From IMG/VR virus record IMGVR_UViG_3300021365_000003: a DNA stretch of 64,000 nucleotides; one strand, written 5' to 3'. This document shows positions 21,423 to 64,000 of this stretch, one piece after another. The position numbers were made by a program, and so were the translations under genes. Position 1 is the first letter of the stretch. Every line of letters starts with the position of its first letter. The notes under the pieces were generated by a model that saw only the letters and a list, made by a program, of their open reading frames with translations, was not told the DNA's origin and searched no databases. This DNA is from a virus.

Positions 21423-23237
21423 ATGTCAAAGGTCACAAAACCAGCGATACGCTACACATCAAGAGAATTTGATACAATTAAGCAGGATTTAGTATCTTTC
21501 ATTAAAAGATATTATCCGGATACTTTCCAAGACTTCCAAGAAGCCGGCTTTGGCTCAATGGTTCTTGACACCACTGCTTATGTTGGTGACATTCTTTCTT
21601 TTTACTTAGACTATTCTGTTAACGAGTCTTTTTTAGACACCGCCGGCGAGTTTGAGAACATAATAAAGATCGCTAGGCAAATGGGTTATCGATATCAGCC
21701 AAACAAAACATCAACTGGTATTTGCTCGTTTTACATTTTAGTCCCGGCAATAACCTCCAGCGACCTAGAAGGCGGCGCAGCGCCAAACTATAGTTATGCT
21801 CCTGTTTTATCTAGAGGGACATCGCTTAGATCGTCATCCGGAATAGCATTTACTCTCTCAACAGCTGTTGACTTTTCTAATCTCAATAACGAAGTCGTTG
21901 TAGCTGAGAGGGACGACGAAACCGGTCGGCCAACCAGGTTTGCGATAAAAGCATTCGGCCGTGTTGTTTCTGGAAAGAATTCAGTTCTGCAAAGAACTGT
22001 TGGCAACTTCAAGCCTTTTCAGAAAATTAGATTAAACAACAACAACATTATTGAGATACTTTCTGTCACAGACTCAAACAACAACGAATATTTTGAAGTT
22101 CCGAACTTGGCGCAGGATACAATCTATAGACAAGTACCTAACAATGGTCCAGATAAAGCGTATGTAAAATACCTCCTACAACCAAAAGCAACCCCAAGAA
22201 GATTTGAATTGCTTCGAGAACAAGGATCTGTTTATCTTAGGTTTGGATATGGATCAGAAGAAAATGTCGAGAGCCAAGAAAAAACAATTATACCAAGCAA
22301 GAAAACATTAGATTTATTCGGCAAAGAATACATTTCAGACACTTCCTTCGATCCAAACGTTCTTCTTAAGAGTGGCAAGTTTGGAATCTCTCCAGCAAAT
22401 ACAGTTCTTAACGTGGTGTATAGAGAGAACACCAATGCTAATGTCAACATTGCCGCCGGCACTCTAAACGCAATTGCAAGACCTTATTTTAAGTTTACTG
22501 ACGATGCGACTAGCGATAGTTTAAAATCACAAGTAATAAACAGTCTAGAAGTCACCAACGAGGAGCCTATCACCGGTGACCTATCTCCGCTAACAACTAG
22601 TGACATAAAAGTTCTTGCTTCTAACTCCTTATTCGCACAAAACAGAGCGGTAACAACAGCCGACTATAAAGCCCTGCTATCAGCAATGCCTTCTGGTCTC
22701 GGAGGGGTCAAACGAGTTGCGGCTTATAAAGATTCTGCAAGTTTGAAAAATAATATAAACTTATTTATTTTGTCAGAGGATGATTCCGGAAAGTTATCTA
22801 CACCTACCGATTCAATGTTCAACAACACTAAAGCGTGGTTGGCTAGATACAAACTAATAAACGATTCAGTTGACATCTTTTCTGCAAAAATCGTAAATGT
22901 TAAAGTAGACTTTGTTGCCGTAGCTGAAGAAGGGTATGACAAAGCTTCTGTCTTGGCACGAGTTAAAAGGGACCTCACTAGATACCTACGGCAAAACCCA
23001 AATGAAATAGGCGAGTCGGTTCAAGTAACAAAGCTTGCGAATGTTATTAACGAAACAGAAGGTATTGCTGATGTTATAAAACTTTTCTTGGAAAGAAAAA
23101 CAGGAGCAGATTATTCCTCAACTGTATACAATCTAAACGCAAACTATTCATCTGATGGTAGGAAGATCTTTATACCAAAAAATGTTATTTGGGAAGTTAA
23201 GTTTCCAAATCAAGATATCAACGGAGAGGTAAGATAA
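21423..23237 (+). CDS. Baseplate wedge subunit, T4 gp6 / baseplate J-like
   Basis: EFDTIKQDL..F, DILSFYLD..NESFL, YLRFG.G, QNRAVTTADY. Confidence 0.88.
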   Translation: MSKVTKPAIRYTSREFDTIKQDLVSFIKRYYPDTFQDFQEAGFGSMVLDTTAYVGDILSFYLDYSVNESFLDTAGEFENIIKIARQMGYRYQPNKTSTGICSFYILVPAITSSDLEGGAAPNYSYAPVLSRGTSLRSSSGIAFTLSTAVDFSNLNNEVVVAERDDETGRPTRFAIKAFGRVVSGKNSVLQRTVGNFKPFQKIRLNNNNIIEILSVTDSNNNEYFEVPNLAQDTIYRQVPNNGPDKAYVKYLLQPKATPRRFELLREQGSVYLRFGYGSEENVESQEKTIIPSKKTLDLFGKEYISDTSFDPNVLLKSGKFGISPANTVLNVVYRENTNANVNIAAGTLNAIARPYFKFTDDATSDSLKSQVINSLEVTNEEPITGDLSPLTTSDIKVLASNSLFAQNRAVTTADYKALLSAMPSGLGGVKRVAAYKDSASLKNNINLFILSEDDSGKLSTPTDSMFNNTKAWLARYKLINDSVDIFSAKIVNVKVDFVAVAEEGYDKASVLARVKRDLTRYLRQNPNEIGESVQVTKLANVINETEGIADVIKLFLERKTGADYSSTVYNLNANYSSDGRKIFIPKNVIWEVKFPNQDINGEVR

Positions 23238-24658
23238 TGGCTTATAAAAAGTTTTTTGCAAATAAAGACAATACAATAACAAACGCCTCAAAGTTTGGTG
23301 GCACAACAAGGGCAACCGGTTCTAACATGGGTCTAGCAGACTCTGTTGAGATCTTTAAGCTCTATGGCAACATAACAACCTCGTCAGTAGAACAAAGCCG
23401 TGCCTTATTTGAGTTTGACACCGCAGAAATAAACACAGCAAGGACCAACGGTCAGATTCCTGCCTCTGGATCCGTTTCATTTTATCTCAACTTATTCAAT
23501 GCTAAGACCCCATTCACAACACCGAGAAACGTCGATCTAATAGTTCAAACAGTCTCTCGGGAGTGGGACGAAGGTCGTGGAATGGATATGGACGAATACA
23601 AAGATCTGGGCGAGTCAAGCTGGGTTTCCGCTTCCACCACTGCCGCCTGGACAACAGCAGGTGGTGACTTTCTTGATTCAGCCACTTACAATAAAACTTA
23701 TCGCCTAACAGAAGGAACTGAGGATTTATCAGCTGATATTTCAGACCTTGTAGAGGATTGGATTGATAGCACCGTAGCAAATTATGGAGTTATTGTAAGA
23801 CTCTCAGGCTCTTTGGAAACAGACTCTGACTCTTATTACACGAAAAAGTTCTTTGCTCGATCATCAGAGTTTTTCTTTAAACGCCCAACAATAGAAGCTC
23901 GTTGGGACTCTTCTGTGAAGGATCAAAGAGGAGACTTTTATGTTTCATCCTCAATGTTATCAACAGAAAATCTTCATACTGTTTATCTTTATAACAACTT
24001 TCGTGGTATCGCAAAAAACATTCCAGCAATAGGAACCGGCCCGATTTATGTAAAAATTTTTGATGCTGAGTCAGGCGGCACAGAACTAAACTCAGCAGTA
24101 TCTGTTAGTTATCCAGTGACTGGCGGCTATGCTGATACTGGTCTTTATTCTTGCTCATTTGATCTGAACACAACTTCGTCAACAGTGTATGATCGATGGT
24201 TTAACGCAGATTACTCAACTTGTTTCCACACAGGCACAATAGAGCTAAAAACTTATAATGCGCAAGAAGATAATAAAATAGAACCTTTAATTCTTTCTAT
24301 TACAAACTTACAAGACATTTATAGTCGAACAGGAATAGACACAAGGGTAAGGCTCTTTACTAGAAAACGCAACTGGTCCCCAACTGTTTATACGGTGGCG
24401 AGCACAGCAATAGAAAACTATTTTGTCGACAACATCTACTATAAAGTAGTAAGAAAGGTTGATAATGCTGATGTTGTTCAGTATGGCACAGGCTCAGTAG
24501 AACACACTCTTTTGTCTTACGATAAGCAAGGCTCTTATTTCGATTTTGACTTCTCTAGCTTAGAAGCGGGGTACCTCTATGAATTCAAGTTCATTATTAA
24601 AGAAGGAACTATTTATAATGAATACCCAACTGGCTTTAAGTTTAGAGTAGACGAATAA
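23237..24658 (+). CDS. Structural protein with DNRLRE-like domain
   Basis: RALFEFD, VSREWDEG, W..AGGDF, DISDLVEDW...NYGVIVR, PTIEARW. Confidence 0.65.
   Translation: MAYKKFFANKDNTITNASKFGGTTRATGSNMGLADSVEIFKLYGNITTSSVEQSRALFEFDTAEINTARTNGQIPASGSVSFYLNLFNAKTPFTTPRNVDLIVQTVSREWDEGRGMDMDEYKDLGESSWVSASTTAAWTTAGGDFLDSATYNKTYRLTEGTEDLSADISDLVEDWIDSTVANYGVIVRLSGSLETDSDSYYTKKFFARSSEFFFKRPTIEARWDSSVKDQRGDFYVSSSMLSTENLHTVYLYNNFRGIAKNIPAIGTGPIYVKIFDAESGGTELNSAVSVSYPVTGGYADTGLYSCSFDLNTTSSTVYDRWFNADYSTCFHTGTIELKTYNAQEDNKIEPLILSITNLQDIYSRTGIDTRVRLFTRKRNWSPTVYTVASTAIENYFVDNIYYKVVRKVDNADVVQYGTGSVEHTLLSYDKQGSYFDFDFSSLEAGYLYEFKFIIKEGTIYNEYPTGFKFRVDE
24608..24617 (+). promoter_or_regulatory. ACTATTTATA motif inside a gene 3' end, putative late promoter
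   Basis: Exact copy starting 50 nt before ATG 24658. Confidence 0.6.
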
Positions 24659-27600
24659 TGACAATAAAAAAGTATTTTGAAAACAATTCTTTTTCGAATA
24701 ACTCATTAACCGACCTAGAAAACAAGGAAGGGATAGACTTTGAGTCGTTTGAGTATCTTGATGAGTTAGAAAAGCAAAGAACAAGGTTTATCCCCAACGT
24801 TGACTTTTCTAAGCCGGAAAACTTTGCTTTTTACGGTCTTGCTGAACAGTATTATAAAGATGCTACGTCAAGAGTTATCAACAACTATCCTTATGATGGT
24901 TCTAAAAAAGAGTTGACCGAATGGTATAATGACTCAACCTACTTTGACTTATATGTCTTTGAGAATGAATACCCCAGGTCTAATGGCTATGGTATCTTCG
25001 CCGCAAATGGTTGGGGTACAAAAGTATCAGTATCGCCCGACAATTATCGTTTAGATGAAAGCTTAGAATACATCTCTATCAAGGGCGGCCCAAACGCAGG
25101 CCCTGGCAACACATACGCCGGCGGCAACATTTATGACCCGTCTAAACAAAGAAACTCAAATTTAGCGCTAAACCTAGACACAAAAGGTGCCACGGTTGAG
25201 TTCTGGCTCAAAAAAAGTATTGTCGATCACCAAATCCGAGAGGTTGTCTTTGATCTCTGGAACAACGAGGTAAGCGGCACATCTGGTGTAGCCAATGAAA
25301 ACTATGGCCGGTTTAGAATCGAAATAAACACCTCAAGCGCCGGCAGTTTCGCTTCTCATAAGGCCTTCAGAGCCATTGTGCACTCTGGATCCAACAGGCA
25401 AGAGGTCTTACTAGGGGACTATACAACTACTGATTCTTTTGACAACCAAGGGTGGACCCACTTTGCTTTTGCGACATCAAAAAGCACCATAAAGCTTTAT
25501 AAAAACGGCGAATTAGACTCCTCTGCGGCCTATGGAACAGACTTTGGGAATGTTTCTGGTACACTAAACGCTTTTGTTGGCGCACTTATAACAAACCCTT
25601 CTGGCTCTACCGCAACAACCGGCTCTGGCAAGCTTTCAGGTTCAATTGACGAGTTTAGATACTGGAAAACTACTAGAACTGAGCGAGACATAGAAAGAAA
25701 CTGGTATACAAACGTCTATGGTGGCACTAATACAGACGACGCAAACACAGATCTTGGTGTTTACTTTAAGTTTAACGAAGGAATAACGGGAGATGCCACA
25801 ACGGATGCAACTGTCCTAGACTATTCAGGACGTATCTCTAATGGCACTTGGATCGGCTATACCTCCAACTCACGCAACATAGGCTCAGCGATTGTTTCAG
25901 CCTCTGCCGCCGAGAAAGAGTTTAAAGATCCAATCCTAAGAACCACAAACGCTCTTTATACCACTTATTATAATGATTCCCTAGAGAAAGGAAAGCGCCA
26001 CGATCTAAATAACTCATCAAACATTTACTATTCATTCCCTGATTGGATTATCGATGAAGACTTAGAAAGTGGAGAGAAGCTGCTCCAACTAGCACAAGCA
26101 GCCGCAAGTTATTTTGACACGGCCCAACTACAAGTTCAGTCTCTTAGAGAGCTAAAGGACATAGAATACTCTTCACAAACTGACGCACTAGACGATAAGC
26201 CAAATCCTTTTGCGGAACGCCTCTTGACCGAAAGAGGAATGATAGCACCCGACTTCTTTGTCGAGAGAACAGTATTAGAAGATCTTTCTCAAAAGACAGC
26301 AGGAGATGCTTTAGAATCAGATCTGTTCGATCTAAAGAACCTTATTTATCAAAACATTTATAACAACTTAGCGGATCTAGTAAAGCAGAAAGGCACAAGA
26401 GAAGCAATACGAAACGTTCTCCACACTATGGGAGTCGGTGAAGAGCTAGTTTCTGCCAAGACCTACATAACCAGTGAGAAACTAGTATTAGAAGACGAAA
26501 AATCTTACAGCAATCAAAGTATAAGGTTTATTGACTTTTCCAAGAAAAACTTTAGAGATGCCGTTGTTTACCAAACCGGCTCAACCTCAAACGAACTAGG
26601 ATACATAAGTTCTTCATCAGATAAAAATGCATTATGTGTAGAATCTTTTGTTCGATTCCCAAAAATAGATGAAAATACAGACACTGATCTTATACCAAAC
26701 TTTTTAGTTTCTTCTCTTTTTGGTTTTCACGACATTGATGAAACGTCAGCGCCATACAACACTTGGGAGTCCACATCAGCTGCCAGTGCTTTCGTAAGAA
26801 CGGTTAAAAATAACTTTCTTGCCGAAAAAGTATACTTTGAGCTAAGCTCTTCTGTAGTGGGTGTCACCGCTCTGACATCTTCTAATTTCTACAATGTATA
26901 CAACAACAGCGACTGGTACTTCTCGGTCCAGTTGGAGCCGCAAAACATTTTATTTCCTTCCTCGTCAGTTCCTGATTATGACCTAGTCTTTAGCGGATAC
27001 TCTTATATAGGAAACAACCTAAATGAGTCTTTTGTTGTTTCTTCATCAGTAAGTCGAGCAACAGCACTTTCATTCCTACAGACCAACCAAAAGGCCTACA
27101 TAGGCGCAGAGCGAACAAACTTTACTGCTGGAACGGTAAATAGCTCAGACGTTAAAAATGCTGGTTTGAGATTTTGGCTTAGAAACCTAACAGCCGACGA
27201 ACAAAAAAGCCATGCCCAAGACTTCCTAAACTATGGGTCTTCGACAAGGTTAAACAATTCCTATTCTTTAACTAGTTCCGTAAGACAAGGAGATCTAGCG
27301 CCAACTGACTATCTTGCTCTTAATTGGCAGTTTGACAAAATCACCACAACAGATGCGTCCGGATTGATTGAGGTGCTAGACTCAACCTCTGGTTCGGCCG
27401 AGAGAAGATCAAGAGGAACGTTCGTCAATAAAATAGCCGGGTATCACCATCCAGCCACATCATACGAGTTTCCGGTATCATCGACAGATGTTGTTCAGAC
27501 CTTATTTATTGACTCTTACTCACCTGTAGAGTTTGATGGCTACAACTCTGACAATTTGATTCAGATCAAGACAACAGAAGATGAAAAATACGGCCTAAAC

Positions 27601-30600
27601 TCACGTTTTGTTTCATTTGTAAGCACAGTAGAGAAAAGTGCGCAAGCAGGCATCAATGAAGAAATGCTAAAAATGTTTGGCTCTGTCAAGGAACTAGCAT
27701 CAAACTTTGCTCAGCCGTCAGATCGTTATAAAAAAGAATACAAAAACCTAAGATTCCTAAGAGAGAGGTTCTTTAAGAACGTTGCAAACGACGTTGATGT
27801 TGAGGACTTCCTACACTTCTATAAATGGATTGACAGCGCAGTCCAGGCGCTTGTCGGGCAGTTCATACCTGCAGCTGCGGACTATAATGAAGATGTATTT
27901 AACGTTATAGAATCGCACGTTCTTGAAAGAAACAAATACCAAACCAAGTTCCCGACTCTAGAAACGATGGACCGAGATCCGATAGCTGGCGCCGGCTCAA
28001 CGGCGTCGTCAATGACCATCTCACAAATGGGCGGCGTCTCCGAGCGAATTCCGACAGAGTATACCCTGGCTCCGGTTCAAAGTGTAAGCCCATCACCCGA
28101 AGACCAAAGCAGCCATACTGCCTGGTGGAAGGACAAAGTTAAACGCACTAACCCTGTTGTGTCTTCTGGTGATGCTGATGTTGATGCTGATCGAGAACAA
28201 ATAAGGCTGGTTAAACAGTCAGCTGCTGGCCGTTCTTATACAACCCCCCAAACTTTAGTTACTGATGATCTTAAGAATGAAAAAGATACAAGAGAAGCAA
28301 CTTATTGGGACGCATCAGTAAAAGAGTTCGGAGAGATTGTAGATGGAGAGTCTGAAGATTATCTTATTTCGTACGCTGATGATGTTGCTGCTTTAAAAGA
28401 TGATAATGATGTTATAGATCCGAACAAGAAAACTAAAATGGACTTCAAGGTTGAGAACGCTAGCGATCCCGATGGTTCCTATTCTCTTGGTAAAGGATCT
28501 TTGTTGGCGCCATACACAATGTGGGAATCCTCTGTTGATACGGGTTACCAAGCCGACTTATCAAATAACTTCAAAGCAGGCATTGGTATCAACAACCATC
28601 ACGACGATGTCTACTCAAAGTTCCGCAATGCCCCGATGCAGTCTCCGGTTACCCAACAATGGGTCGGTGGTAGAAAATACCGACATGTCCCTTTAAACAA
28701 AGGCTCAGACGCATTTGGAACACGCCCGGAAGGTTTTTATGTAAAAACAGTACCAATTGGCACAGTAACAGCAGTCCAGGCCAGCGGCACAATAAATTTA
28801 AACTCAAACCCAAACAACAATGATACAATAACAATCCCGTATACTTCTACCGATTCCGTTGTCTTTATTTTCAAGTCTAGCGCAAGTGGCGGCTCTACTA
28901 CACAAATACAGATTGGTGGAGGAGCCGGCTCAACGGCTACCACCGCAAGAAGTAAAATAAGTGCACACCCAGACCTTACTAGTCTTCTAACCGTTGGTGG
29001 TTCGGGAGCTAACATAACCTTGTTGTTCAATTCGGGCGAGGCAGAGCGCAACAACACGATAAGCACAACCGGCGGCGGCCGTATTACAGTTGCCGGGTTT
29101 GCCGGTGGGGTTGCGGCAGTAGCTGGCGTCAAGAACTTAAAAATTACAAAAACATCTTACACCATCGATGGAACGGCCGACTTTGATACTCCTCGTGGTT
29201 CTTTATATCGTGAAGAGCTAGCAAAAAGATCTGTTAACATAAAAAACAGGCCGTTTGAAAGCCCTGGTAACTTCAAGAAGAACTATGAAATTGTAATGGT
29301 TAACGGAAGAACCGAGAACAATCTCTGGTATCGCCATAACTCCACAGAAGTTTTGACAGAGGCTGAAGTTTGGAGTTTAAACAGAGGAACAACTTCACCC
29401 TATTTGAACGCCACGCTGCCCACAAGAGGCGTTGTAGAATCGGTTATAGTAAACCGCTTCTCTGCTCCTGGAGGCCCTGAGATCCAATCTCGTGGCTATT
29501 TAGAGCCTACTGGTGAAGAACTCTCACCTTATAATGCCTATCCTTTCCGAAACACAAGCGTTATTTACTCAAGTGGATCAGGAAACAATGATTTTACTGG
29601 CTCAACAGGTCCAAGAGTTAACGTTTATACAAACATCCACACACAAAATGATGGATTGAGAATACTTCTTTCCAGACGAAGAGGCAAATATGGTGTCGAC
29701 TCTGTCTTTGGAGCTGTAAGAGAACTTGACTACAACACAACTGGCTCTTATCACAAGATCTATGATAACCCAATAAGCCAATCAACAGGGATTAACTATG
29801 ACAACTTTTTTGTTTCACACCAGATCCCAAGAACTCCAGCCAGTTACTCTTGGGTTGCTAGTGCTCTAAACGGATCTAGTGGATCTTTCTCATACTCTAG
29901 AAACGCAACAGTCCCAAGTGGATCGACCTCACAAGCAGTTCCGTTTGCTGAGTTGATCAGCTCCATAGAAAGAACCACAACAGACAACAGAGCATTCACT
30001 GGTTTATTTAGTGGTTCTTCAACACCAACTAGTGCAGTATTGACCTCTTCTCTTTATGCCTCGATGGTCGATCAGGGAACCACAGAAATCACAAACGAAC
30101 TTACTGCTCCAAATGTTGGTATAGACAACTTCCACGTCTATACACACGCAATAAACAACTCTATCTTTGGGAACAACTCATTTAGCCAAATAAGAGGCGG
30201 AGACACAAGACAAGCAAGATCACTAAGAGAGAATAATACTTTATCATTTAGCTATCTTGATTCTCGTCGTTTGGCGGGAGGTGTATCAATACCGATAGAG
30301 TTGGTAAGGAACATCTCAATGGCGCCGATAGTAGAACATTATCCTGTAAAACAACAGTTGCTAATTGGCGCCACTACATCCAGTTTCCAATACTCATTTG
30401 GAAACGAGCTTGAGTATCTTCCACTATCAGATCCGCAACTTAATGCGCTGACCAATGTTCGTGAGATCCGAAGAAAGAAAAAAACAAACTTTAACTATAT
30501 TTCCGATTCTTATACCATAGGAACTCTAGCACAATTAAAAAGTATTACCTATAAGCAAAACATTTGGCCAAAGACTGAAAGAACATATTTAAAAGAAACC

Positions 30601-33600
30601 CGACAAAGAACGCAATTTACAATTAACTGGTGGAGTACTGGAAGGTCAACAAGAGATAGAGCATCAGATCCTTTATTGAACTCGTTAGGAAACAACGTTC
30701 TTTCTCAGTCAATTTGGGTTCTTGATGGCGTTAGTGATGTTGATAATCAGCCAAAAGATTTATTTGATTATAGTGGCTCCTACGCAGAAATTGACTTATA
30801 CAGCAGGAAAAACTTATTTAGCGCCGGTGAGTTAAACAACAATACCCAACTTAGTTATTTAATTGTTGGCATGCCCACTGGTCAAACTCTAGGCAGCCAG
30901 CCGTTCGTAAACAACCATTGGAAAAAGCTCTATATGGACTCACAAATTAGGCCAGGAGTTCAGTATGCTAGAGATTTCACAAGCTTTACCGGTAGTTTAA
31001 TCTTCTCAGCTAGTGCTGCTCCTGGTAATAATGTTGATTACTTTGTCCCACATCAAACAGTGGGCGGAACACCTTGGTCAGCAGCAGAAGAGGCCGGCAA
31101 AGAGCCTTTCTACTATGAGAACTATGATGCGTATATCCAAGAAGCAAAATCTGCTGGAAAAGAATATTCCGTCATTCCGGAATTTAGAATAAGCGAAACA
31201 ATAGATCAGATCCTAGCCGGCGAAGAAGGGGAGTCAACAATTCTTTCACCAATGCTTTCAATTACTGGCGGCTTCGTGGCGGATGATACTGAAAACAATT
31301 TCTATGCGGATTATACAAACTCAGATTTCTTAAAATATTTTAATATCATAAAAGACAAGCACGATTCGGCTGGTATCGAAAACCAAGGAACCCTAAGACT
31401 TTCTTGCGAAGCGATTAAAAAATTCCTTCCCTACGAAGGCTTCTACCCGGCTCAACGTGTTGTGCAACTAGGCACTCTATTCAGTCAATCATTTAGTGAT
31501 GTTATAACTATTAGCGGCGAGGGCAACCCTTACGATACTGGCGCTTCTAATCTTAACAATGGCGGCAGCTTTAGAACCGCTATGGCGCCATTCTATAGCC
31601 CAGGAATACTTTGCAACAGCATTAAATCAGGAATTTCAGTTGGATATCCTGTCTTTACATCAAGTTTTGACCCGGAATTAAATGTAACCGGCACTTATTT
31701 GTCCAACTCTTCAGGAACCTCCGTATATGATGATGAAGGGCCTAGAATCTCTGGATCGTTTAATTATAGGCTTCCTTTTGAGTCAATAACAGACCCTTTG
31801 GCTTACATCACTACAATGGTTGACTCGGAGCCCGATCCAACTGCTATTATAATCTCTACAGCTAGTTACGATTCTAGTCGTGGTGGATCTCCGCTTTACT
31901 CATTTGCTATTAATAACTTCTTAGCAGAAACAATGAACCTTTTCTTAAAAAACCGGTCTGTTTCTTCCTTGGTTTCAGCTGGTGAGAACGACTTTAGTTT
32001 TGATCCTAGAAAAGAATACAGAATGAAAGTTCGTGTTTTTGAAGAAGACATGGATATATACAGCGGAAGCAAATCATACGGCCCAGCGATGGACGACAGC
32101 CTTTCTCTTAACGGTACCAGGGCCTCGCACCTGCCCTTCCTCCCTCCTTACGACATTGGATCGACCACAGAGGAAGAGGGTATCGAACTTGTGTTTAACC
32201 CAACATCCGATAACCACAGCGTTGACTTTATTTTAGGCAATCTAACAGAGTCATTCACGATTTATGAAGACCTCAGTACTTCACCCGGCGTGTCTCTTGC
32301 TTTGGATGGTCGAACAAAAATTACAGACTCTATACAACTAAACAGAAAAGTTAAAGTTGGAGACTCTTCTCGTGCTGTACCATCAGCACCCGAGTATGCA
32401 ATCTCAATTCAACCAAAATGGGAATCCCCCGTATTGGATTTCAGCCACAGAACAGCATCGATTTCTGTTGCTAGTAACACTCAGGCTACTCACGTTATAA
32501 CAGTTAATGGCGCTCCAGTTACAGCCGGCAAAAAATTAACAATAAGCGATGGTTTTAGCGACGTCGAATATACATTTGTCAGCGGAACACCTGGAGATTA
32601 CGAAATACAAAGAACCTCCGGAACAGGCACACAGGCTCAAAACATATTAGATGCAATTTTAGTTAATAACTCTTCTATAAAATCAAACTTTACTGCAGCC
32701 CGTGTTAGTAATGTGGTTACACTGACAGCTATAGCGCCCGGTAAATTTCCGTCTTTCTCCTCAAGCACAAACTTTAGCGGAATTGATATGGCATCGACCA
32801 ACGGCACTGGGTTTTATAATGGATCCTCAAAAGCTGACAACTACTATGTTGGAATGTGGCATCAGTATGGCCAAATCCCAACTGGATCAGGTAGAATGGA
32901 TCAGGGTATCAAGATGCAGATCACAGAACCAATCCTAACAGACACAACTGGTTCTCTAGCGGAAGCACTCGGCTTTACCAACCAGCCGGTAAAACTAGGT
33001 GAAATTGCCGACTCAAGGACTGTGAAAGAAGCCATCGTTGCTATTCCGTATACAGTTGTTGAAGGAGAAAAAAGATTATTCCCAATAAATCCTGCAGAAT
33101 TACAATCGGCCATCTCCTTTGTTAAACACGGCGGAGAACGACCAACAATAAGAGATGAGTATATCAACTTGGCCAGGAAGGGGCACGAATTTGTCCTACC
33201 ACCTAAGTATGATTTCTTTTACAATTTATTACAACCAGACAATCCCGAAGGAGTGTTACCATTCGCAATGTTTGTTTTTGACTTCAATATGAAACTCAAC
33301 AGACAAGACCTTGCGGACATTTGGCAGAACTTGCCACCAACATCAACAAGCGGCAAAAAAGATCTAACTTCTGGATTTGACAAAGAAGAAAGCATTGTAA
33401 ATGTAGCTTATGGCGAAGCAGGTTCTTGGTTCCCTGAAGGCCTCCCGACCGACACACGCTGGATGGTGTTCAAAGTCAAGCAAAGAGCTGCTTACGACTA
33501 CTACGAACAGGTAAGAAACTCCTCATTGGCGAAAGGCCTCAGAGAGAGAGTTAACGTACAAGGCGCATTCGTCGACCCGACTTATAGTTATAACTGGCCT

Positions 33601-33687
33601 TATGACTTCTTCTCTTTCGTGGAACTAGCCAAAATAAATACTGCTTTAGAGATAACCAACACTACCGACGTTAGTGGATCGTCATGA
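24658..33687 (+). CDS. Giant baseplate/tail protein with LamG-like domain(s) (3009 aa)
   Basis: TVEFWLK, WTHFAF, GSIDEFRYW, YFKFNEG (LamG); KQKGTREAIRNVL baseplate-wedge-like motif. Confidence 0.75.
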   Translation: MTIKKYFENNSFSNNSLTDLENKEGIDFESFEYLDELEKQRTRFIPNVDFSKPENFAFYGLAEQYYKDATSRVINNYPYDGSKKELTEWYNDSTYFDLYVFENEYPRSNGYGIFAANGWGTKVSVSPDNYRLDESLEYISIKGGPNAGPGNTYAGGNIYDPSKQRNSNLALNLDTKGATVEFWLKKSIVDHQIREVVFDLWNNEVSGTSGVANENYGRFRIEINTSSAGSFASHKAFRAIVHSGSNRQEVLLGDYTTTDSFDNQGWTHFAFATSKSTIKLYKNGELDSSAAYGTDFGNVSGTLNAFVGALITNPSGSTATTGSGKLSGSIDEFRYWKTTRTERDIERNWYTNVYGGTNTDDANTDLGVYFKFNEGITGDATTDATVLDYSGRISNGTWIGYTSNSRNIGSAIVSASAAEKEFKDPILRTTNALYTTYYNDSLEKGKRHDLNNSSNIYYSFPDWIIDEDLESGEKLLQLAQAAASYFDTAQLQVQSLRELKDIEYSSQTDALDDKPNPFAERLLTERGMIAPDFFVERTVLEDLSQKTAGDALESDLFDLKNLIYQNIYNNLADLVKQKGTREAIRNVLHTMGVGEELVSAKTYITSEKLVLEDEKSYSNQSIRFIDFSKKNFRDAVVYQTGSTSNELGYISSSSDKNALCVESFVRFPKIDENTDTDLIPNFLVSSLFGFHDIDETSAPYNTWESTSAASAFVRTVKNNFLAEKVYFELSSSVVGVTALTSSNFYNVYNNSDWYFSVQLEPQNILFPSSSVPDYDLVFSGYSYIGNNLNESFVVSSSVSRATALSFLQTNQKAYIGAERTNFTAGTVNSSDVKNAGLRFWLRNLTADEQKSHAQDFLNYGSSTRLNNSYSLTSSVRQGDLAPTDYLALNWQFDKITTTDASGLIEVLDSTSGSAERRSRGTFVNKIAGYHHPATSYEFPVSSTDVVQTLFIDSYSPVEFDGYNSDNLIQIKTTEDEKYGLNSRFVSFVSTVEKSAQAGINEEMLKMFGSVKELASNFAQPSDRYKKEYKNLRFLRERFFKNVANDVDVEDFLHFYKWIDSAVQALVGQFIPAAADYNEDVFNVIESHVLERNKYQTKFPTLETMDRDPIAGAGSTASSMTISQMGGVSERIPTEYTLAPVQSVSPSPEDQSSHTAWWKDKVKRTNPVVSSGDADVDADREQIRLVKQSAAGRSYTTPQTLVTDDLKNEKDTREATYWDASVKEFGEIVDGESEDYLISYADDVAALKDDNDVIDPNKKTKMDFKVENASDPDGSYSLGKGSLLAPYTMWESSVDTGYQADLSNNFKAGIGINNHHDDVYSKFRNAPMQSPVTQQWVGGRKYRHVPLNKGSDAFGTRPEGFYVKTVPIGTVTAVQASGTINLNSNPNNNDTITIPYTSTDSVVFIFKSSASGGSTTQIQIGGGAGSTATTARSKISAHPDLTSLLTVGGSGANITLLFNSGEAERNNTISTTGGGRITVAGFAGGVAAVAGVKNLKITKTSYTIDGTADFDTPRGSLYREELAKRSVNIKNRPFESPGNFKKNYEIVMVNGRTENNLWYRHNSTEVLTEAEVWSLNRGTTSPYLNATLPTRGVVESVIVNRFSAPGGPEIQSRGYLEPTGEELSPYNAYPFRNTSVIYSSGSGNNDFTGSTGPRVNVYTNIHTQNDGLRILLSRRRGKYGVDSVFGAVRELDYNTTGSYHKIYDNPISQSTGINYDNFFVSHQIPRTPASYSWVASALNGSSGSFSYSRNATVPSGSTSQAVPFAELISSIERTTTDNRAFTGLFSGSSTPTSAVLTSSLYASMVDQGTTEITNELTAPNVGIDNFHVYTHAINNSIFGNNSFSQIRGGDTRQARSLRENNTLSFSYLDSRRLAGGVSIPIELVRNISMAPIVEHYPVKQQLLIGATTSSFQYSFGNELEYLPLSDPQLNALTNVREIRRKKKTNFNYISDSYTIGTLAQLKSITYKQNIWPKTERTYLKETRQRTQFTINWWSTGRSTRDRASDPLLNSLGNNVLSQSIWVLDGVSDVDNQPKDLFDYSGSYAEIDLYSRKNLFSAGELNNNTQLSYLIVGMPTGQTLGSQPFVNNHWKKLYMDSQIRPGVQYARDFTSFTGSLIFSASAAPGNNVDYFVPHQTVGGTPWSAAEEAGKEPFYYENYDAYIQEAKSAGKEYSVIPEFRISETIDQILAGEEGESTILSPMLSITGGFVADDTENNFYADYTNSDFLKYFNIIKDKHDSAGIENQGTLRLSCEAIKKFLPYEGFYPAQRVVQLGTLFSQSFSDVITISGEGNPYDTGASNLNNGGSFRTAMAPFYSPGILCNSIKSGISVGYPVFTSSFDPELNVTGTYLSNSSGTSVYDDEGPRISGSFNYRLPFESITDPLAYITTMVDSEPDPTAIIISTASYDSSRGGSPLYSFAINNFLAETMNLFLKNRSVSSLVSAGENDFSFDPRKEYRMKVRVFEEDMDIYSGSKSYGPAMDDSLSLNGTRASHLPFLPPYDIGSTTEEEGIELVFNPTSDNHSVDFILGNLTESFTIYEDLSTSPGVSLALDGRTKITDSIQLNRKVKVGDSSRAVPSAPEYAISIQPKWESPVLDFSHRTASISVASNTQATHVITVNGAPVTAGKKLTISDGFSDVEYTFVSGTPGDYEIQRTSGTGTQAQNILDAILVNNSSIKSNFTAARVSNVVTLTAIAPGKFPSFSSSTNFSGIDMASTNGTGFYNGSSKADNYYVGMWHQYGQIPTGSGRMDQGIKMQITEPILTDTTGSLAEALGFTNQPVKLGEIADSRTVKEAIVAIPYTVVEGEKRLFPINPAELQSAISFVKHGGERPTIRDEYINLARKGHEFVLPPKYDFFYNLLQPDNPEGVLPFAMFVFDFNMKLNRQDLADIWQNLPPTSTSGKKDLTSGFDKEESIVNVAYGEAGSWFPEGLPTDTRWMVFKVKQRAAYDYYEQVRNSSLAKGLRERVNVQGAFVDPTYSYNWPYDFFSFVELAKINTALEITNTTDVSGSS

Positions 33688-33729: not shown

Positions 33730-34764
33730 ATGTCATTATTCGATTCAAAACAAGAAGTAATAAACATAGAACTAACTTCATTTGGAAAAAAGAAATTAGC
33801 AGCAGGAAAGCTCAGGCCTTCCTTTTATGCTTTTTTTGATGATGGCGTTATTTATGATGGTTCTTATGCTGCCTTGACAGAAAACTCAAATGGCGAAGCG
33901 GACGATCGAGTAAGAAAAGAAACACCATACCTAAAAACAACTTATTCTATTGTTGGCGCTGACATCAAACTTAACAATACCCCAGGCGACCAAGAGCTTT
34001 TTGACACCAACCAAGTTCTTTTTGATAACATTCGCTTGTATGAAAATACTAACTTACTCAAATACGGCCTAGGAACGTCAAAAATAGGCGAAGTAACCGG
34101 ATCCCAAATCAGTGTTAGCTTTTTAGATGGCACATTAACAAATGTCCATACTGCTTCTTCCGTATACGTTTTTAAAGGCAGCACGGACGAACGTTTAAAC
34201 AAACCCCAGACAAGGCTAGTTACACAAGACTTGGACCTAACCCCTGAGATAAGAAGTTTACCAGACCCGTCGATGACAATCCCGCCAGAACTGATTGACC
34301 CAGTCAGAATAGAACCAGCTGTTGTTTCTCCAATTCTCCAAGACAACAAATACGTTTTCCTTGAGGTTGACGAGTTGCTCTTGGCGGTCGACGAACTAAA
34401 CTCTGTTGAGGCTTATGACAACTTTGAGATAAGCGTTTACAAGATCGAAACAAAAGAAGACGACAAAGAAGAGTATAAAAAACTAAACTTTAAAGCCAAG
34501 CAAAAACAAGTCAATGAAGAAGGGTTCTTGATGGATGAAGTGGAAATTTCATCACAAGATTCTATTTTAACAGAAGATGATGTTGAGTTTCATCTTGACA
34601 TACAGATAGACGAAGAAATAGACCCGGCACTACTTACTAGTAAGGTGCCAAGAGATTCACTTGGATACCCGATATTAGATGATCCTTTGATTCAGAATAC
34701 GTTTGACATAAGACGAGATGCGGATTTCTCTAGAAGAAGAGACGACGCTGGAGATCCTTGCTAA
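33730..34764 (+). CDS. Hypothetical tail/baseplate protein
   Basis: N-terminal LTSFGKKKLAAG..YAFFDDGVIY resembles the 40754 gene. Confidence 0.7.
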   Translation: MSLFDSKQEVINIELTSFGKKKLAAGKLRPSFYAFFDDGVIYDGSYAALTENSNGEADDRVRKETPYLKTTYSIVGADIKLNNTPGDQELFDTNQVLFDNIRLYENTNLLKYGLGTSKIGEVTGSQISVSFLDGTLTNVHTASSVYVFKGSTDERLNKPQTRLVTQDLDLTPEIRSLPDPSMTIPPELIDPVRIEPAVVSPILQDNKYVFLEVDELLLAVDELNSVEAYDNFEISVYKIETKEDDKEEYKKLNFKAKQKQVNEEGFLMDEVEISSQDSILTEDDVEFHLDIQIDEEIDPALLTSKVPRDSLGYPILDDPLIQNTFDIRRDADFSRRRDDAGDPC

Positions 34765-48501: not shown

Positions 48502-48519
48502 AACAAAGGAGAAATAGTA

Positions 48520-48738: not shown

Positions 48739-48741
48739 TAA

Positions 48742-49769: not shown

Positions 49770-49772
49770 TAA

Positions 49773-51431: not shown

Positions 51432-51963
51432 GATAATCAAGGAAGAAATAGCCGACCTAGACGAGGCAACCCTTGGAGGTCTTTTTGGCCGTGGTAAGAA
51501 AGCCTCAACCCGAAGACCCCGAAGAGGTCCAAGTGGAGCGGATGATCTAGATGTTCGTGCTGGCGAGATTGACGCAATGGATTCAGCTGCCGGTCTCAAC
51601 AAAGGCCAAAAGAAAGCTTATAGCGCTGCGATTGCAGATGCCTCATCCGACGCTGCCAAGATGGACACAAAATCATCCCAGAAAGACTTTGAGCGTGTTA
51701 TGAAGTGGGCAAATGATAATGACATTGCCACAGAAAAAGAGATTGAGAGCGCATCTGAGAAAGACTTTGAGCGTGTTATGGGCTGGGCAAATGATAATCG
51801 CATCGCCACAGAGAAAAACATTGCACGTGCAGTAGTTGATGTAATAAAAACAATGGACAGTGGCATGATAGCCAAGATCCAAGAGCCTCTTCTTGCTGAC
51901 GATGATTTCATTGAGCAGCTAGCAAATAAGATTGCTCAATACAAGCACACTCCGGGAGAATAA
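51403..51963 (+). CDS. Hypothetical protein with N-terminal KLVEIIKEE tag and internal repeat
   Basis: GGAGA RBS before ATG 51403 (MRITKEKLVEIIKEEI). Confidence 0.7.
   Translation: MRITKEKLVEIIKEEIADLDEATLGGLFGRGKKASTRRPRRGPSGADDLDVRAGEIDAMDSAAGLNKGQKKAYSAAIADASSDAAKMDTKSSQKDFERVMKWANDNDIATEKEIESASEKDFERVMGWANDNRIATEKNIARAVVDVIKTMDSGMIAKIQEPLLADDDFIEQLANKIAQYKHTPGE
51681..51823 (+). repeat. Two-copy in-frame tandem repeat, 78-nt period
   Basis: GAAAGACTTTGAGCGTGTTATG starts at 51681 and 51759; KDFERVM.WANDN.IATEK occurs twice. Confidence 0.9.
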
Positions 51964-59369: not shown

Positions 59370-59759
59370 ATGAGCGTTTTTCAATACAAAACAGGCCTAG
59401 GAAATTCTTCGGCATACCAAGTAAGTGCAATACCTTTTATTATAAGTCAGAATATAACAGCAGGGACTATAACTCAAATTACTTTTCCGCAAGTTACAAA
59501 ATTTATAAAAATTGTTAACAACCATGGCAGTAGAACTTTGGATGTAGGCTTTTCATCCTTGGGTATAAGCGCTAGTAGCAATTATTTTACAATTGCTGCA
59601 AACAGTGAATCTGTCATATATTATTGGAGAGTTTCAAGTGTCTTTATAAAGGCTAGCGGCGGCGCTACCTCTGTGCCCATAGAAATTCACGCTGGACTAA
59701 CAACAGTTTCAGATCTAGAACTAACCAATAACTGGTCTGGATCGGTAGGAGTAGGATAA
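59370..59759 (+). CDS. Small beta-rich protein, paralog 1
   Basis: MSVFQYKTGLGNSSAYQVS...NNWSGSVGVG. Confidence 0.78.
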   Translation: MSVFQYKTGLGNSSAYQVSAIPFIISQNITAGTITQITFPQVTKFIKIVNNHGSRTLDVGFSSLGISASSNYFTIAANSESVIYYWRVSSVFIKASGGATSVPIEIHAGLTTVSDLELTNNWSGSVGVG

Positions 59760-59760
59760 G

Positions 59761-60165
59761 ATGAGTGTTTTTCAGTATAGAAGTGGGTTAGGAAACTCTG
59801 CTTCTTATCAAGTAAGCTCAATACCTTACTTGTTAAAGGGCAACCAAATTACCAACAATACTATAGTTGAAATAGCTTTCCCAAATGTAACTAACTTTAT
59901 AGAAATTTTTACAGCGGCCGGTTCTGCAGATTTAAGAATAGGGTTTTCATCTCTAGGGATTAGAAAAAGCCCTTCCCCGGCCGGCACTAACTATATTCTA
60001 CATTCAGCTGGGACAAGTGAAATTTACGATTGGCGTGTAACATCTTTGTTCCTACAGAGAAACGGATCGTCTGGAACCGTGGATTATGAGATTCGTGCTG
60101 GCCTAACAACAATCGCCGGAAGCGATCTAAGCAACAACTGGTCAGGTTCTGCCGGCGTAGGATAA
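59761..60165 (+). CDS. Small beta-rich protein, paralog 2
   Basis: MSVFQYRSGLGNSASYQVS...NNWSGSAGVG. Confidence 0.78.
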   Translation: MSVFQYRSGLGNSASYQVSSIPYLLKGNQITNNTIVEIAFPNVTNFIEIFTAAGSADLRIGFSSLGIRKSPSPAGTNYILHSAGTSEIYDWRVTSLFLQRNGSSGTVDYEIRAGLTTIAGSDLSNNWSGSAGVG

Positions 60166-61353: not shown

Positions 61354-63141
61354 ATGTCAGTACTTAAGACACTCACAGAGGGCATCCAGCCCCGTGACCT
61401 TCACCAGGAGTCAAGCGCACTACTTAATAAGTGGGAGCGAACAGGACTACTCGAAGGTCTAAACACAGATGACAAGCGTCACCAGATGGCTCGTCTACTT
61501 GAAAATCAGGCCAAGGAGCTTCTTCGTGAATCATCCACAATGGCCGGCGCCGACGTTGAAGGCTTTGCAGCAGTTGCATTCCCTCTCGTTCGACGTGTAT
61601 TCGCATCACTTGTTGCTCAGGATCTAGTTTCTGTTCAGCCAATGTCACTTCCTTCAGGTCTAATCTTCTTCATGGATTTCACCTTCTCAGCCGAGGGCGG
61701 TATGAACGCCAATGGCGAGCGTCTAGGAAATGCTTCAGCTGACTCAATCTATGGCGGTGGCCGAGTTGCTTCACAGATCACAGGCGGCGTTGTCCTTACC
61801 GGAATCGATGCCGAGCGTGGCCCTTACGCACTCAACAACGGCTTCTCCTCACCGACCGGCACAGTCGTTTCAGCCGGGCTAACCACGCCCGTAGCATCAG
61901 GTACGGTTGGCGATGGCGGTTTTGCTGACTTCACAACTGCGACCGACGGTTTCAGTGGCACGGCAGGCTACGACCTAGCCAACCTACTTCAATTCGATGC
62001 CGACCTTGTATCAGGTTCAGCCTTCGTTGTTGCAACAGCTCCTATCTCTGGTCTTACCGGCGGCGAGTTTAACTTTGACGACTATGTTGCTATTACAATC
62101 ACAGGATCTGGCAAGTCTGATCCACTAGGATTAGGTGCAAACTCAGTTCAAGTTCGACGCCTTACTAGACAAGACCCTGTTAATAGCGCAAATGTTCTTC
62201 TTGTTGCTGCCTCACTAACTGCTTCTGATGCAACTGGTATTGGCCAGCTTAGAACTGCGCTCAACGCTGTAACACACGTTGACATTCCTCTAGCTGACAA
62301 CTTTGATAGTTCCGGCATTGGATCCGTTGTAGGCGCTGCCGAATGGGGACTTGAGAACAACGCTGATATCCCTGAAATCGACATCAAGGTCGATTCCGTA
62401 TCAGTCACCGCAGTCACCAAGAAGCTCAAGGCTAAGTGGACTCCGGAACTTGGTCAGGACCTCAATGCATACCACAACATGGACGCAGAGGTTGAGCTTA
62501 CTTCAATCCTTTCAGAGCAGGTTGCTCTTGAGATTGACCGTGAGATCCTTGAAGACCTTGTCAAGGGATCAACTGCTGGTACATTCTACTGGTCACGTCG
62601 ACCGGGTCGTTTCGTCGACCGTGAGACTGGTGCTGATATCGCCAACGGAACCCAGAACGAGTCACTTCTCGGAGCAGACTTCACTGGTAATGTTTCAGAG
62701 TGGTACGAGACTCTCATTGAGACAATCAATGATGTTTCCGCTCAGATCCACCGTAAGACACTTCGTGGCGGCGCCAACTTTGTTGTTGTCTCCCCCGAAA
62801 TGGCTAACCTTCTTGAGTTCACCGCCGGCTTCCGTGCTGCTGTAACTCACGATGATGACCGTGGTAGCATTGGCGCTGTTCGTGTTGGTTCACTTTCCAA
62901 GAAGTTTGACGTTTATGTCGACCCTTACTTCCTACGCAATGTCGTACTAGTTGGTCGCAAGGGCGCTTCCTTCCTTGAAAGTGGCTACGTGTACGCCCCG
63001 TACGTACCTCTCCAGGTGACTCCGACTATCTTCGGTGTCGAGGACTTCGTACCTCGTAAGGGTGTCATGACCCGATACGCCAAGAAGATGGTTCGTCCGG
63101 ACATGTACGGTCTAGTTATCTGCAAGGACTTCCTTGGATAA
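61354..63141 (+). CDS. Major capsid protein (T4 gp23-like)
   Basis: LLENQ, PLVRR, VQPMSLPSGLIF, KLKAKWTPELGQDLNAYH, EIDREI, YAPYVPL, GVMTRY. Confidence 0.97.
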   Translation: MSVLKTLTEGIQPRDLHQESSALLNKWERTGLLEGLNTDDKRHQMARLLENQAKELLRESSTMAGADVEGFAAVAFPLVRRVFASLVAQDLVSVQPMSLPSGLIFFMDFTFSAEGGMNANGERLGNASADSIYGGGRVASQITGGVVLTGIDAERGPYALNNGFSSPTGTVVSAGLTTPVASGTVGDGGFADFTTATDGFSGTAGYDLANLLQFDADLVSGSAFVVATAPISGLTGGEFNFDDYVAITITGSGKSDPLGLGANSVQVRRLTRQDPVNSANVLLVAASLTASDATGIGQLRTALNAVTHVDIPLADNFDSSGIGSVVGAAEWGLENNADIPEIDIKVDSVSVTAVTKKLKAKWTPELGQDLNAYHNMDAEVELTSILSEQVALEIDREILEDLVKGSTAGTFYWSRRPGRFVDRETGADIANGTQNESLLGADFTGNVSEWYETLIETINDVSAQIHRKTLRGGANFVVVSPEMANLLEFTAGFRAAVTHDDDRGSIGAVRVGSLSKKFDVYVDPYFLRNVVLVGRKGASFLESGYVYAPYVPLQVTPTIFGVEDFVPRKGVMTRYAKKMVRPDMYGLVICKDFLG

Positions 63142-63200: not shown

Positions 63201-63207
63201 GCCAAGA

Positions 63208-63216: not shown

Positions 63217-63245
63217 GATAGAGCACTTATAAGGAGAATACACGA

Positions 63246-64000
63246 ATGTCTTTGCCTGTCCTAACACCCACTTCTCAAACATCAGCAATAATACTTCCGC
63301 AGACCGGGACAGCAACTGATGTAACCGTAACTTTACCATACGGCATTTATTCGGCATCAGACTCCTTTCTAACAGGCGCCTCAGACCAAGTTGCCTATAC
63401 ATACAAAATGCTTGGCGGCGACGTTTTGGATATTGAACTTACAGCCGGCAACGTTTATGCGGCTTATGAAGATGCTTGTATAGAATACTCTTATCTAGTC
63501 AATCTACATCAAAGCAAAAACTCTCTTTCTGATCTACTAGGATCCTCAACCGGCTCTTTTGACTCGGACGGCACAATAATAGGTGGCGACGCTTCCGGAT
63601 CAGCAGCTGCTATAAAGTATACTCGCTTTTCATTTGAGTACTCACGAAGAGTTGGTGATGCTGTCGGCACAGAAGTTCGTGTTGGCGGCTTGACTAACAT
63701 TTACTCAGCCTCGATCGATGTTGAGGTCAATAAACAAGATTATGATCTAGAAACCATCCTAAGAGCAGATCCGGTCCATTCATCAAGAGTAGGAACAGAT
63801 AGTAGAATTTTAGTTAGAAAAGTTTTTTATAAGACTCCACAAGCAATGTGGCGTTTTTATGGCTATTATGGCGGCCTAAACGCCGTTGGCAATTTGTCTA
63901 GTTATGGTCAGTTTGCCGATGACTCAACTTTCGAAGTTATTCCAACCTGGCAGAATAAAGCCCAGGCAATGGCTTTTGAGGACGCTATTTATACAAGAAC
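63246..64000 (+). CDS. Neck/head-completion protein (gp13-like), truncated by window edge
   Basis: Not in the ORF track; MSLPVLTPTSQ...YKMLGGDVLDIELTAGNVYAAYEDACIEYS is open to the window end; follows the capsid gene. Confidence 0.7.
   Translation, partial: MSLPVLTPTSQTSAIILPQTGTATDVTVTLPYGIYSASDSFLTGASDQVAYTYKMLGGDVLDIELTAGNVYAAYEDACIEYSYLVNLHQSKNSLSDLLGSSTGSFDSDGTIIGGDASGSAAAIKYTRFSFEYSRRVGDAVGTEVRVGGLTNIYSASIDVEVNKQDYDLETILRADPVHSSRVGTDSRILVRKVFYKTPQAMWRFYGYYGGLNAVGNLSSYGQFADDSTFEVIPTWQNKAQAMAFEDAIYTR

Follow-up and report, generated by a model that had tools for sequence, protein, structure and literature searches.

Does a tripeptide that recurs in unrelated structural proteins of a marine phage mark those proteins for glycosylation? 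The question is raised by a 64,000-nucleotide stretch (hereafter the window; IMG/VR record IMGVR_UViG_3300021365_000003) of an uncultured marine T4-like phage, all of whose genes in the window lie on the + strand. The initial annotation had read the triplet [ST][GAS]S in its virion proteins as a candidate sequon, supplied with an unusual glycan by a sugar-gene cluster at 1–11 kb. The triplet is strongly enriched in five families of virion proteins, in the refined form hydrophobic-[ST]-[GSA]-Ser, and the bias is shared by a whole phage lineage. Such a motif may be an acceptor tag whose last serine is modified, although a purely structural role is nearly as likely.

All peptides quoted in the initial annotation are present in proteins of the window, and their frequency was compared with global, local (10–40 residues) and dipeptide-preserving shuffles. 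The 473-aa baseplate-peripheral protein (23237..24658, +) carries 8 [ST][GAS]S sites against 2.3–2.6 expected (p 0.001–0.004; dipeptide shuffle 4.5, p 0.03), the 3009-aa giant fibre/baseplate protein (24658..33687, +) carries 37 along its whole length against 16–20 (p<0.001; dipeptide shuffle 24.4, p 0.001), and the 386-aa protein (42748..43908, +) carries 10 against 2.1–2.6 (p≤0.001), with 2–5 expected across all shuffles. Enrichment is weak in the 341-aa protein (41721..42746, +; 6 sites against 2.5–3.1, p 0.03–0.07), a C-terminal paralogue of the 386-aa protein (BLASTP E 2e-13), and the 344-aa protein (33730..34764, +), of unknown fold, has 2 sites only in the window; their families are nevertheless enriched, at 3.5x for the 341-aa, 4.5x for the 386-aa and 3.2x for the 344-aa protein (6.9x in the last when a hydrophobic residue precedes). 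Pooled over the five families, [ST][GAS]S occurs 63 times against 25.9 expected (z 7.4) and [ST]GS 32 times against 7.8 (z 9.0), an excess beyond Ser, Gly and Thr content that survives the local and dipeptide-preserving shuffles, as the initial annotation would have it. Composition, local composition and dipeptide content are accordingly rejected as its cause.

The signal is specific to these residue classes. Control patterns pooled over the same five families are at chance ([ST][GAS]T, hereafter the Thr variant, 23 against 20.3; [^ST][GAS]S 101 against 99; [ST][GAS][^ST] 176 against 177), as are permuted controls, while [DN][GAS]S and [ST][GAS][DN] are at or below it. Because Thr-ending patterns and those starting or ending outside Ser/Thr show no excess, the classes first proposed are exactly the enriched set; an unbiased tripeptide scan of the window's tail module likewise puts TGS and SGS on top. 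Requiring a preceding hydrophobic residue sharpens the contrast (32 against 8.0 in the five families) and gives the refined motif, hydrophobic-[ST]-[GSA]-Ser. A motif acting at the DNA level was ruled out: the codons at the sites are diverse, so that the signal lies in the protein.

The initial annotation had also listed the capsid insertion, two small paralogues and the neck protein as carriers, and here the outcome is mixed. The gp23-like major capsid protein (61354..63141, +) has 3 sites (aa 220, 250 and 289), all within a lineage-specific insertion domain; the two paralogous head-module proteins of 129 and 134 aa (59370..60165, +) each end in NNWSGS; and in the gp13-like neck adaptor (63246..63998, +), truncated by the window end, all 4 sites follow a hydrophobic or small residue. 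Together these proteins hold the bare tripeptide 11 times against 6.0, a weak excess that the Thr variant equals, and the two small paralogues alone show none (each 2 against 1.4); with a preceding hydrophobic residue the count becomes 8 against 2.1 (p<0.001). Individually, none of the capsid, small-paralogue, neck, 907-aa, 1066-aa, 1866-aa and gp6-like proteins reaches significance. The reported scarcity in terminase, portal, primase, SbcCD and sugar enzymes holds as far as counts go (bare motif 5 against 3.1 and 7 against 4.7), with these low numbers predicted by composition and no depletion; the hydrophobic-preceded motif is at expectation in the sugar enzymes and in the replication and packaging proteins.

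The bias is replicated in homologues, sampled from IMG/VR at 43–70 distinct sequences per family. [ST]GS stands at 4.7–7x its compositional expectation in the 473-, 3009-, 344-, 341- and 386-aa families (7x in the 473-aa family), and the 3009-aa homologues hold 1509 sites against 457 expected; the gp25-like, gp6-like, 1066-aa, primase, SbcCD and terminase families lie at 0–1.4x (<0.5x in all except primase), and open reading frames (ORFs) without a match in the window at 1.05x. A profile search extends the 473-aa family to 2,706 representative proteins, the best 150 of which have [ST][GAS]S at 3.43x and the Thr variant at 1.07x; tblastn of the 473-aa protein against 50,697 phage records found no cultured homologue. 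Across homologues, G (3.9x), A (2.1x) and S (1.9x) are the only enriched middle residues of [ST]-X-[ST], and the third is Ser-specific: TGS reaches 6.4x and SGS 4.9x against about 1.9x for SGT/TGT, and TAS/SAS about 3x against about 1x for SAT/TAT. In the baseplate-core families (gp25-like, gp6-like and 1066 aa) the Ser variant falls to 0.2–0.6x, with the Thr variant at about 1.0–1.2x (about 1.1–1.2x in the two wedge families), and in the 315-aa and 300-aa families the same Ser/Thr contrast appears with a preceding hydrophobic residue only (0.10x against 0.63x; 0.19x against 1.28x). This deficit in five families is suggestive, as a weak sign, of the avoidance expected for non-targets.

Which proteins carry the motif is seen best in a complete 185-kb relative, G010. 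The highest scores among its ORFs go to orthologues of the five families and to four further proteins, and its genome-wide top scorers include the gp13-like neck protein, which matches phrog_211, and a 1056-aa fibre whose 34-residue repeats are based on Q-V-T-A-S-N-G. All 12 sites of the tail sheath lie within aa 142–605 and none in the conserved core (618–966); the capsid signal is weaker, its 4 sites again falling in the insertion region, flanked by the stretches that fit the capsid profile. Carriers of the motif are therefore proteins and domains that are peculiar to the lineage and face outwards. No counterpart of the 1056-aa fibre (…TLTGQVTASNG…; 113252–116422, L158/L159), encoded between prohead and capsid genes, exists in the window; its C-terminal domain is shared (E 4e-7) with a fibre of cyanophage S-SKS1 (9990–15173), whose 34-residue repeats have T-A-T-N for T-A-S-N. 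As to a common origin of the carriers, hhalign gives a probability of 0.2% for the 473-aa against the 386-aa family and all-against-all BLAST finds no homology across families; internal repeats and hidden homology were thus rejected as a cause, the 341/386 paralogy and the pair at 59.4–60.2 kb being the only cases found by BLAST and hhalign.

The bias extends to cultured phages of the same lineage. The records closest to the capsid protein come from an uncultured 484-kb phage, Microcystis phage Mel-JY01, Flavobacterium immuto phages and Rhodothermus phage RM378. When the unbiased scan is applied to the tail modules of the three cultured phages (immuto, Mel-JY01 and RM378), the triplets SGS, TGS and TAS come out at or near the top (in immuto below the HAE/SHA tripeptides of Hep_Hag-type repeats), the enriched proteins having the Ser variant at 3.3–4.7x and the Thr variant at 0.7–1.4x. 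As in the window, the enriched genes of immuto come after the gp6-like wedge gene. One immuto protein, of 369 aa, is a remote homologue of the 473-aa family (hhalign 96%, 213 columns) that keeps about one of five aligned sites in place and still has 7 sites against 1.4 expected; motif density is thus maintained at deep divergence although the sites themselves move. In the immuto 'tail spike' (1053 aa; L213:13659–16817) there are 60 [ST][GAS]S sites, with arrays of ATSASYA/ATTASYS every 5–9 residues. Outside the lineage, T4 gp34–37, gp12, gp9–11, gp7, gp8, Hoc and Wac stay at chance level ([ST]GS 7 against 9.0; top tripeptide z 4.6 only), and S-SKS1 is enriched in one poly-Ser tract and one tandem-repeat protein only, the latter made of near-identical 34-residue repeats that use T-G-T and T-A-T. 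A generic property of tail fibres was rejected on these grounds. The motif statistics and their conservation throughout the lineage are thus established.

What, then, does the sugar cluster contribute? The window holds the right-hand 11 kb of a nucleotide-sugar/glycosyltransferase (GT) island (93..11259, +; Pfam scans), with genes for WbqC, a radical SAM enzyme with SPASM domain (790–1770, +), a weak GT1-like protein (3176–4138, +), a sugar C-methyltransferase, three SDR epimerase/dehydratases, a PfkB kinase, two cytidylyltransferase-like proteins and a cupin. Radical SAM/SPASM enzymes act on sugars (BtrN-type) or peptides. Of the enzymes for ADP-heptose supply (kinase, phosphatase, adenylyltransferase and isomerase), candidates present are the HldE-like kinase and nucleotidyltransferase halves, no GmhA being seen in the window. 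IMG/VR contains many relatives of the window phage, of which 12 large ones (G002–G013, six judged at least 90% complete) were surveyed; the closest record (G001) is a 67-kb fragment that does not include WbqC. SDR sugar enzymes occur in 11, GT2 in 10 and GT1 in 11 of the 12. The nucleotide-sugar genes vary around a constant core of two adjacent genes for ~425-aa GT4 proteins (GT4a and GT4b) and a ~690-aa GT2 multidomain protein; the G010 island adds a GT10-like gene, a DegT aminotransferase and a sulfotransferase-like gene below the Pfam cut-off.

A cassette of PD-(D/E)XK nuclease, GT4a and GT4b has the same order in the marine clade (G010, L151:3454–6788), immuto (48008–51927) and Mel-JY01 (81375–86302), while RM378 has GT4a only, and the pair is kept across phages with hosts from three phyla. 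Among 50,697 phage records GT4a was found in the immuto, Mel-JY01 and RM378 lineage and the 484-kb relative only; its nearest Atlas clusters are all viral, with Nucleocytoviricota CgeB-like clusters among the neighbours (a lead only). The GT1 profile scores GT4b far below GT4a (Pfam E 2e-6 against 4e-14), as for a degenerate partner subunit. Since GT4a precedes the 473-aa gene by about 24 kb in the nearest relatives, it is placed just left of the window edge. Whether the motif is equally frequent in relatives without these enzymes can be answered in part: T4 and S-SKS1, outside the lineage and without the GT pair, lack the bias, and no complete relative is without GTs, G006 lacking them only since its contig stops within the island.

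Neither DNA nor a self-contained lipid-linked polysaccharide pathway is a likely destination of the glycan. In digests, immuto DNA has canonical dA, dC and dT, with fdPreQ1 (formyl-preQ1) replacing dG (bioRxiv 10.1101/2023.04.13.536721), so the immuto transferases do not glycosylate DNA. The ThyA-family hydroxymethylase (PF00303) that would speak for T4-type DNA glycosylation is found in none of the 12 relatives and was detected in control genomes. Its absence from all 12, six of them at least 90% complete, also points to another thymidylate route or to reliance on the host. Likewise, the Bac_transf priming enzyme (PF02397) and the Wzx flippase (PF01943), as used in a Wzx/Wzy lipid-linked pathway, occur in none of the 12; host enzymes could substitute for both, and action on host glycans is thus possible.

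Our tentative reading is that hydrophobic-[Ser/Thr]-[Gly>Ser>Ala]-Ser may be an acceptor tag displayed on outward-facing virion proteins, whose last serine would be modified, most probably by O-glycosylation. Soluble phage glycosyltransferases would modify freshly synthesised structural proteins in the cytoplasm, either ahead of assembly or in its course. The adjacent GT4a–GT4b pair would prime, other transferases of the island (the ~690-aa GT2 multidomain, GT10-like and GT1-like proteins) would extend the glycan, and the variable part of the island (1–11 kb of the window) would supply unusual nucleotide sugars as donors. Baseplate periphery, fibres, outer sheath domains, neck and capsid insertion domain would in this way be covered by glycans specific to the phage. 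Modification of the serines, the enzyme that carries it out and the purpose of the coat are what we infer from the observed motif statistics, gene content and arguments against a DNA target. The tag is made plausible at the sequence level by its occurrence in unrelated families and on their outward parts, by the Ser-specific third position, by the turnover of sites at maintained density, and by a GT4 pair known from viruses only.

A purely structural explanation, nearly as likely as the tag, holds that hydrophobic-[ST]-[GSA]-S-hydrophobic forms a thin spot or tight arc between beta-strands, reused in beta-sandwich and fibrous domains, where small residues permit close packing and Ser is preferred over Thr since the position is in coil; the sugar island would then serve another purpose. 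The anatomy of the sites agrees with it and weighs against an acceptor tag. In alignments of the 473-, 386- and 341-aa families, 3.3–7.4 of the 7.5–13.3 sites per sequence fall in 4–10 fixed columns (those with the motif in half or more of the sequences), and a further 2.3–4.6 in 10–20 polymorphic columns; in the 473-aa family, with homologues at about 45% identity, 10 columns are fixed and hold 7.4 of 13.3 sites per sequence. Structural constraint would give the same pattern of more than half of the instances in fixed columns. The polymorphic columns of this family, by contrast, comprise 20 of the Ser variant against 8 of the Thr variant, a difference that favours the tag; the Thr variant has 0–2 fixed columns in the three families and stays close to chance, at 1.0x (473-aa family) to 1.7x (341-aa family). 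The 27 fixed sites of the three families have hydrophobic anchors at both flanks: position −1 is hydrophobic in 65%, position 1 is S in 48% and T in 38%, position 2 is G in 46%, S in 30% and A in 16%, position 3 is S in 72% and T in 14%, and position +1 is hydrophobic in about 50%, a profile of hydrophobic-hydroxyl-small-Ser-hydrophobic that fits a strand edge or tight arc. In some columns position 1 is exchanged for Asp or Asn, as in Asx/ST-turns.

Predicted structures point the same way. In the AlphaFold2 (AF2) model of the 473-aa protein (predicted local distance difference test score, pLDDT, 85), which begins with a jelly roll followed by FN3/Ig-like sandwiches, all eight sites (8/8, from DSSP strings) lie in coil adjoining strands; in that of the 386-aa protein (pLDDT 73), with an Ig-V-like central sandwich, they include strand ends and a two-residue hairpin (T181–G182), the sites of both models falling in coil at strand boundaries. 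Relatives build 5–6-residue and 34-residue fibre repeats on the motif. The 3009-aa protein itself has a hexad run, SGSTAT-TGSGKL-SGS, at aa 315–329, at the end of its Laminin_G_3 domain (aa 171–345); similar [ST]-G-S-x-x-x hexads occur at aa 21–37 of an immuto 373-aa protein. The C-terminal region of the immuto tailspike matches the Hep_Hag head repeats of trimeric autotransporters (7o23, E 6e-10; 3s6l), where such triplets are structural. The Ser/Thr-Ala-Ser-Gly of Hep_Hag/YadA-type repeats has a known structural role, and antibody light-chain framework 3 keeps Phe-Ser-Gly-Ser purely for packing. Enrichment in the 473-aa family is concentrated in the conserved core (3.7x), accessory inserts being at only 1.66x and the largest insert cluster not enriched.

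Further points count against a tag on grounds other than structure. Several large proteins of the virion module (the gp6-like, gp25-like, 907-aa, 1066-aa and 1866-aa proteins) show no excess of the motif; avoidance is not seen genome-wide, the rest of G010 being at 1.04x; and the marking of capsid and neck rests on few sites. PDB searches with GT4a, GT4b and the GT2 protein gave generic GT4/GT2 matches only, with no GtfA-, OGT-, Maf- or BAHT-like signature. The co-occurrence of GTs and motif is that of a single lineage, and hence one evolutionary event.

The structural explanation meets difficulties in turn. T4 fibre, baseplate and Hoc proteins, as given above, do not exceed chance, and other beta-rich proteins of the very same phages (gp6-like, 1066-aa, sheath core and capsid core) are without the motif or depleted in it. 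Families lacking detectable homology have it in common, the 473-aa family and its immuto homologue preserve density rather than positions, and the local structure at the sites varies (two-residue hairpin, or coil that precedes or follows a strand). The glycosylation-site claim of the initial annotation is partly supported. Two outcomes that it had named as refuting were checked and it survived both, the excess going beyond Ser/Gly/Thr content and the bias being absent from phages outside the lineage that lack the GT pair. The enrichment, its recurrence throughout the lineage and the GT pair favour it, and a structural explanation fits many of the same data.

An unmodified surface patch is improbable, in which paired hydroxyls on exposed strands would bind host or environmental polysaccharide weakly or aid solubility. 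The restriction of the motif to outward-facing proteins and domains suits it, as does a carbohydrate-binding-module-like domain in the 473-aa protein: Foldseek matches the N-domain of the model to CBM96 (8wab, E 5.5e-7, TM 0.67 normalised on target) as well as to FN3/Ig chains and CBM96-annotated BFVD entries, with a CBM96 lead in Atlas, and the predicted N-domain has the fold of a CBM96-like module, Pfam giving no CBM96 match for this protein. Binding, however, requires neither a preference for Ser over Thr nor a small middle residue, and the sites are scattered rather than clustered. For the 386-aa protein, fold searches (Foldseek, VIA-align) gave weak Ig-like rows alone (Z≤4.6) and no significant match. 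About one third of the 473-aa family (among 150 representatives, P0001–P0150) carry inserts of 80–400 residues after profile position ~135, in several unrelated clusters and in proteins of up to 1288 aa, which identifies this baseplate protein as a hot spot of domain insertion.

A tag for a serine modification other than glycosylation, such as glycerol- or ribitol-phosphate from cytidine diphosphate (CDP) donors, phosphorylation or acylation, is if anything slightly less probable than the surface patch. A Ser-specific third position after a small residue suits many Ser-directed enzymes, and the island has two cytidylyltransferase-like proteins and a kinase, and G010 has its sulfotransferase-like gene and a weak N-terminal TagF match in the GT2 multidomain protein; yet this match is limited to the generic nucleotide-binding start, and no kinase, phosphotransferase or acyltransferase is conserved in the lineage like the GT4 pair. 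Least probable, and rejected on testing, is an artefact of composition or of post hoc selection of a Ser/Thr/Gly-rich triplet, since, rich in S, T and G as the proteins concerned are, the excess survives local and dipeptide-preserving shuffles, permuted and Thr-ending controls are at chance, and the result is replicated in homologues, 150 representatives and three cultured phages.

If the tag reading is extended to the lineage, with a slightly lower probability, a deep T4-like group might possess sequon-directed O-glycosylation in which GT4a/GT4b prime serines on every outward-facing virion protein and a fast-evolving sugar island gives each phage its own coat; it would comprise the marine clade, Immutovirus of Flavobacterium, Mel-JY01, RM378 and the 484-kb megaphage. 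Were the motif an acceptor tag, it would be the first sequence rule to predict glycosylated phage surfaces, would explain why many aquatic myophages carry large islands of soluble glycosyltransferases, and would bear on host recognition, particle stability, stickiness in seawater and the reading of metagenomes. Three cultured phages with the motif bias (immuto and Mel-JY01 with the GT4 pair, RM378 with GT4a) make the question directly testable. Even if structural only, the motif would be a lineage-specific signature of baseplate and fibre proteins that are otherwise unannotatable.

The remainder of the window is that of a T4-like phage; megablast with 24 kb of the window gave no match. Between the sugar island and the tail genes lies a gp55-like late sigma factor (11826–12530, +; phrog_234, E 5e-4), a gene also kept in immuto and Mel-JY01. 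PHROGs and Pfam identify gp25-like (20870–21403, +) and 604-aa gp6-like (21423–23237, +) baseplate wedge proteins, the large terminase (52464–54035, +), the portal (54039–56000, +), a primase and a prohead protease; no window protein matches Hep_Hag or another repeat family in either database. The motif-poor 1066-aa protein of the virion module (37487..40687, +) has 1 site against 2.7 expected, its family standing at 0.64x. A fused SbcD–SbcC (gp47/gp46-type) nuclease is encoded by one 1034-aa ORF (45386–48490), SbcD-like at aa 1–342 and SbcC-like at aa 332–1029.

How would such a tag compare with known systems? To our knowledge, glycosylation of tailed-phage virions is proven for some mycobacteriophages only, and we know of no phage acceptor sequon. 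GtfA/GtfB glycosylate serine-rich repeat adhesins of Gram-positive bacteria, and may resemble the present case in two adjacent GT4-type paralogues, the second more degenerate, in Ser-small-Ser acceptors and in extending transferases; unlike there, we found no match to GtfA/GtfB in PDB sequence searches of the GT4 proteins, no accessory Sec system and no long Ser-rich tracts in the window, which has isolated sites and one hexad run, arrays occurring in the immuto tailspike only. Chloroviruses and mimiviruses also encode their own sugar-nucleotide pathways and soluble multidomain transferases, and build capsid or fibril glycans without host endoplasmic reticulum/Golgi or lipid carriers; in contrast, they are eukaryotic viruses, chlorovirus glycans are N-linked at non-canonical sites, and no acceptor homology was found. 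YadA/Hep_Hag repeats and the light-chain Phe-Ser-Gly-Ser share hydroxyl-small-hydroxyl strings with hydrophobic flanks, whereas the present motif selects Ser at position 3 and is spread over several unrelated folds. Nor is the enriched motif the Bacteroidota sequon D-[ST]-[AILVMT] of exported proteins, a comparison made on the motif with no search for export signals.

TibC/AAH heptosyltransferases hyper-O-glycosylate patterned serines on the beta-rich repeat proteins TibA and AIDA-I in the cytoplasm (PMC4358343). The HldE-like halves in the window and the beta-rich surface acceptors recall this system; on the other hand, a GT9 gene (PF01075) is found in only 1 of the 12 relatives and in 0 of the 6 complete ones, no iron-finger or dodecamer features were seen, and the conserved enzymes are GT4. 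In mycobacteriophages of the Che8 type (Freeman et al. 2023, Cell Host Microbe, as cited in PMC12619734 and PMC12801897), O-glycans are reported on C-terminal extensions of capsid and tail-tube subunits, proven by mass spectrometry. As in that account, soluble glycosyltransferases are phage-encoded near the structural genes (GT1/GT2 in the relatives, GT4a left of the window edge and the GT1-like ORF) and are proposed to decorate the phage's own virion in the cytoplasm. Unlike in what is described there, the sites are internal (baseplate/fibre proteins, capsid insertion and neck), with a C-terminal WSGS in the two small paralogues only, and the system would combine a virus-only GT4 pair with a tetrapeptide sequon in myoviruses of Gram-negative and cyanobacterial hosts. 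Should the tag reading be right, it would be analogous to the mycobacteriophage, TibC/AAH or GtfA/GtfB systems and a member of none, given its internal sites, the lack of a conserved GT9 and the absence of GtfA/GtfB similarity or long Ser-rich tracts; its novelty would lie in glycosylating virions at a defined sequon and through a new GT4 pair.

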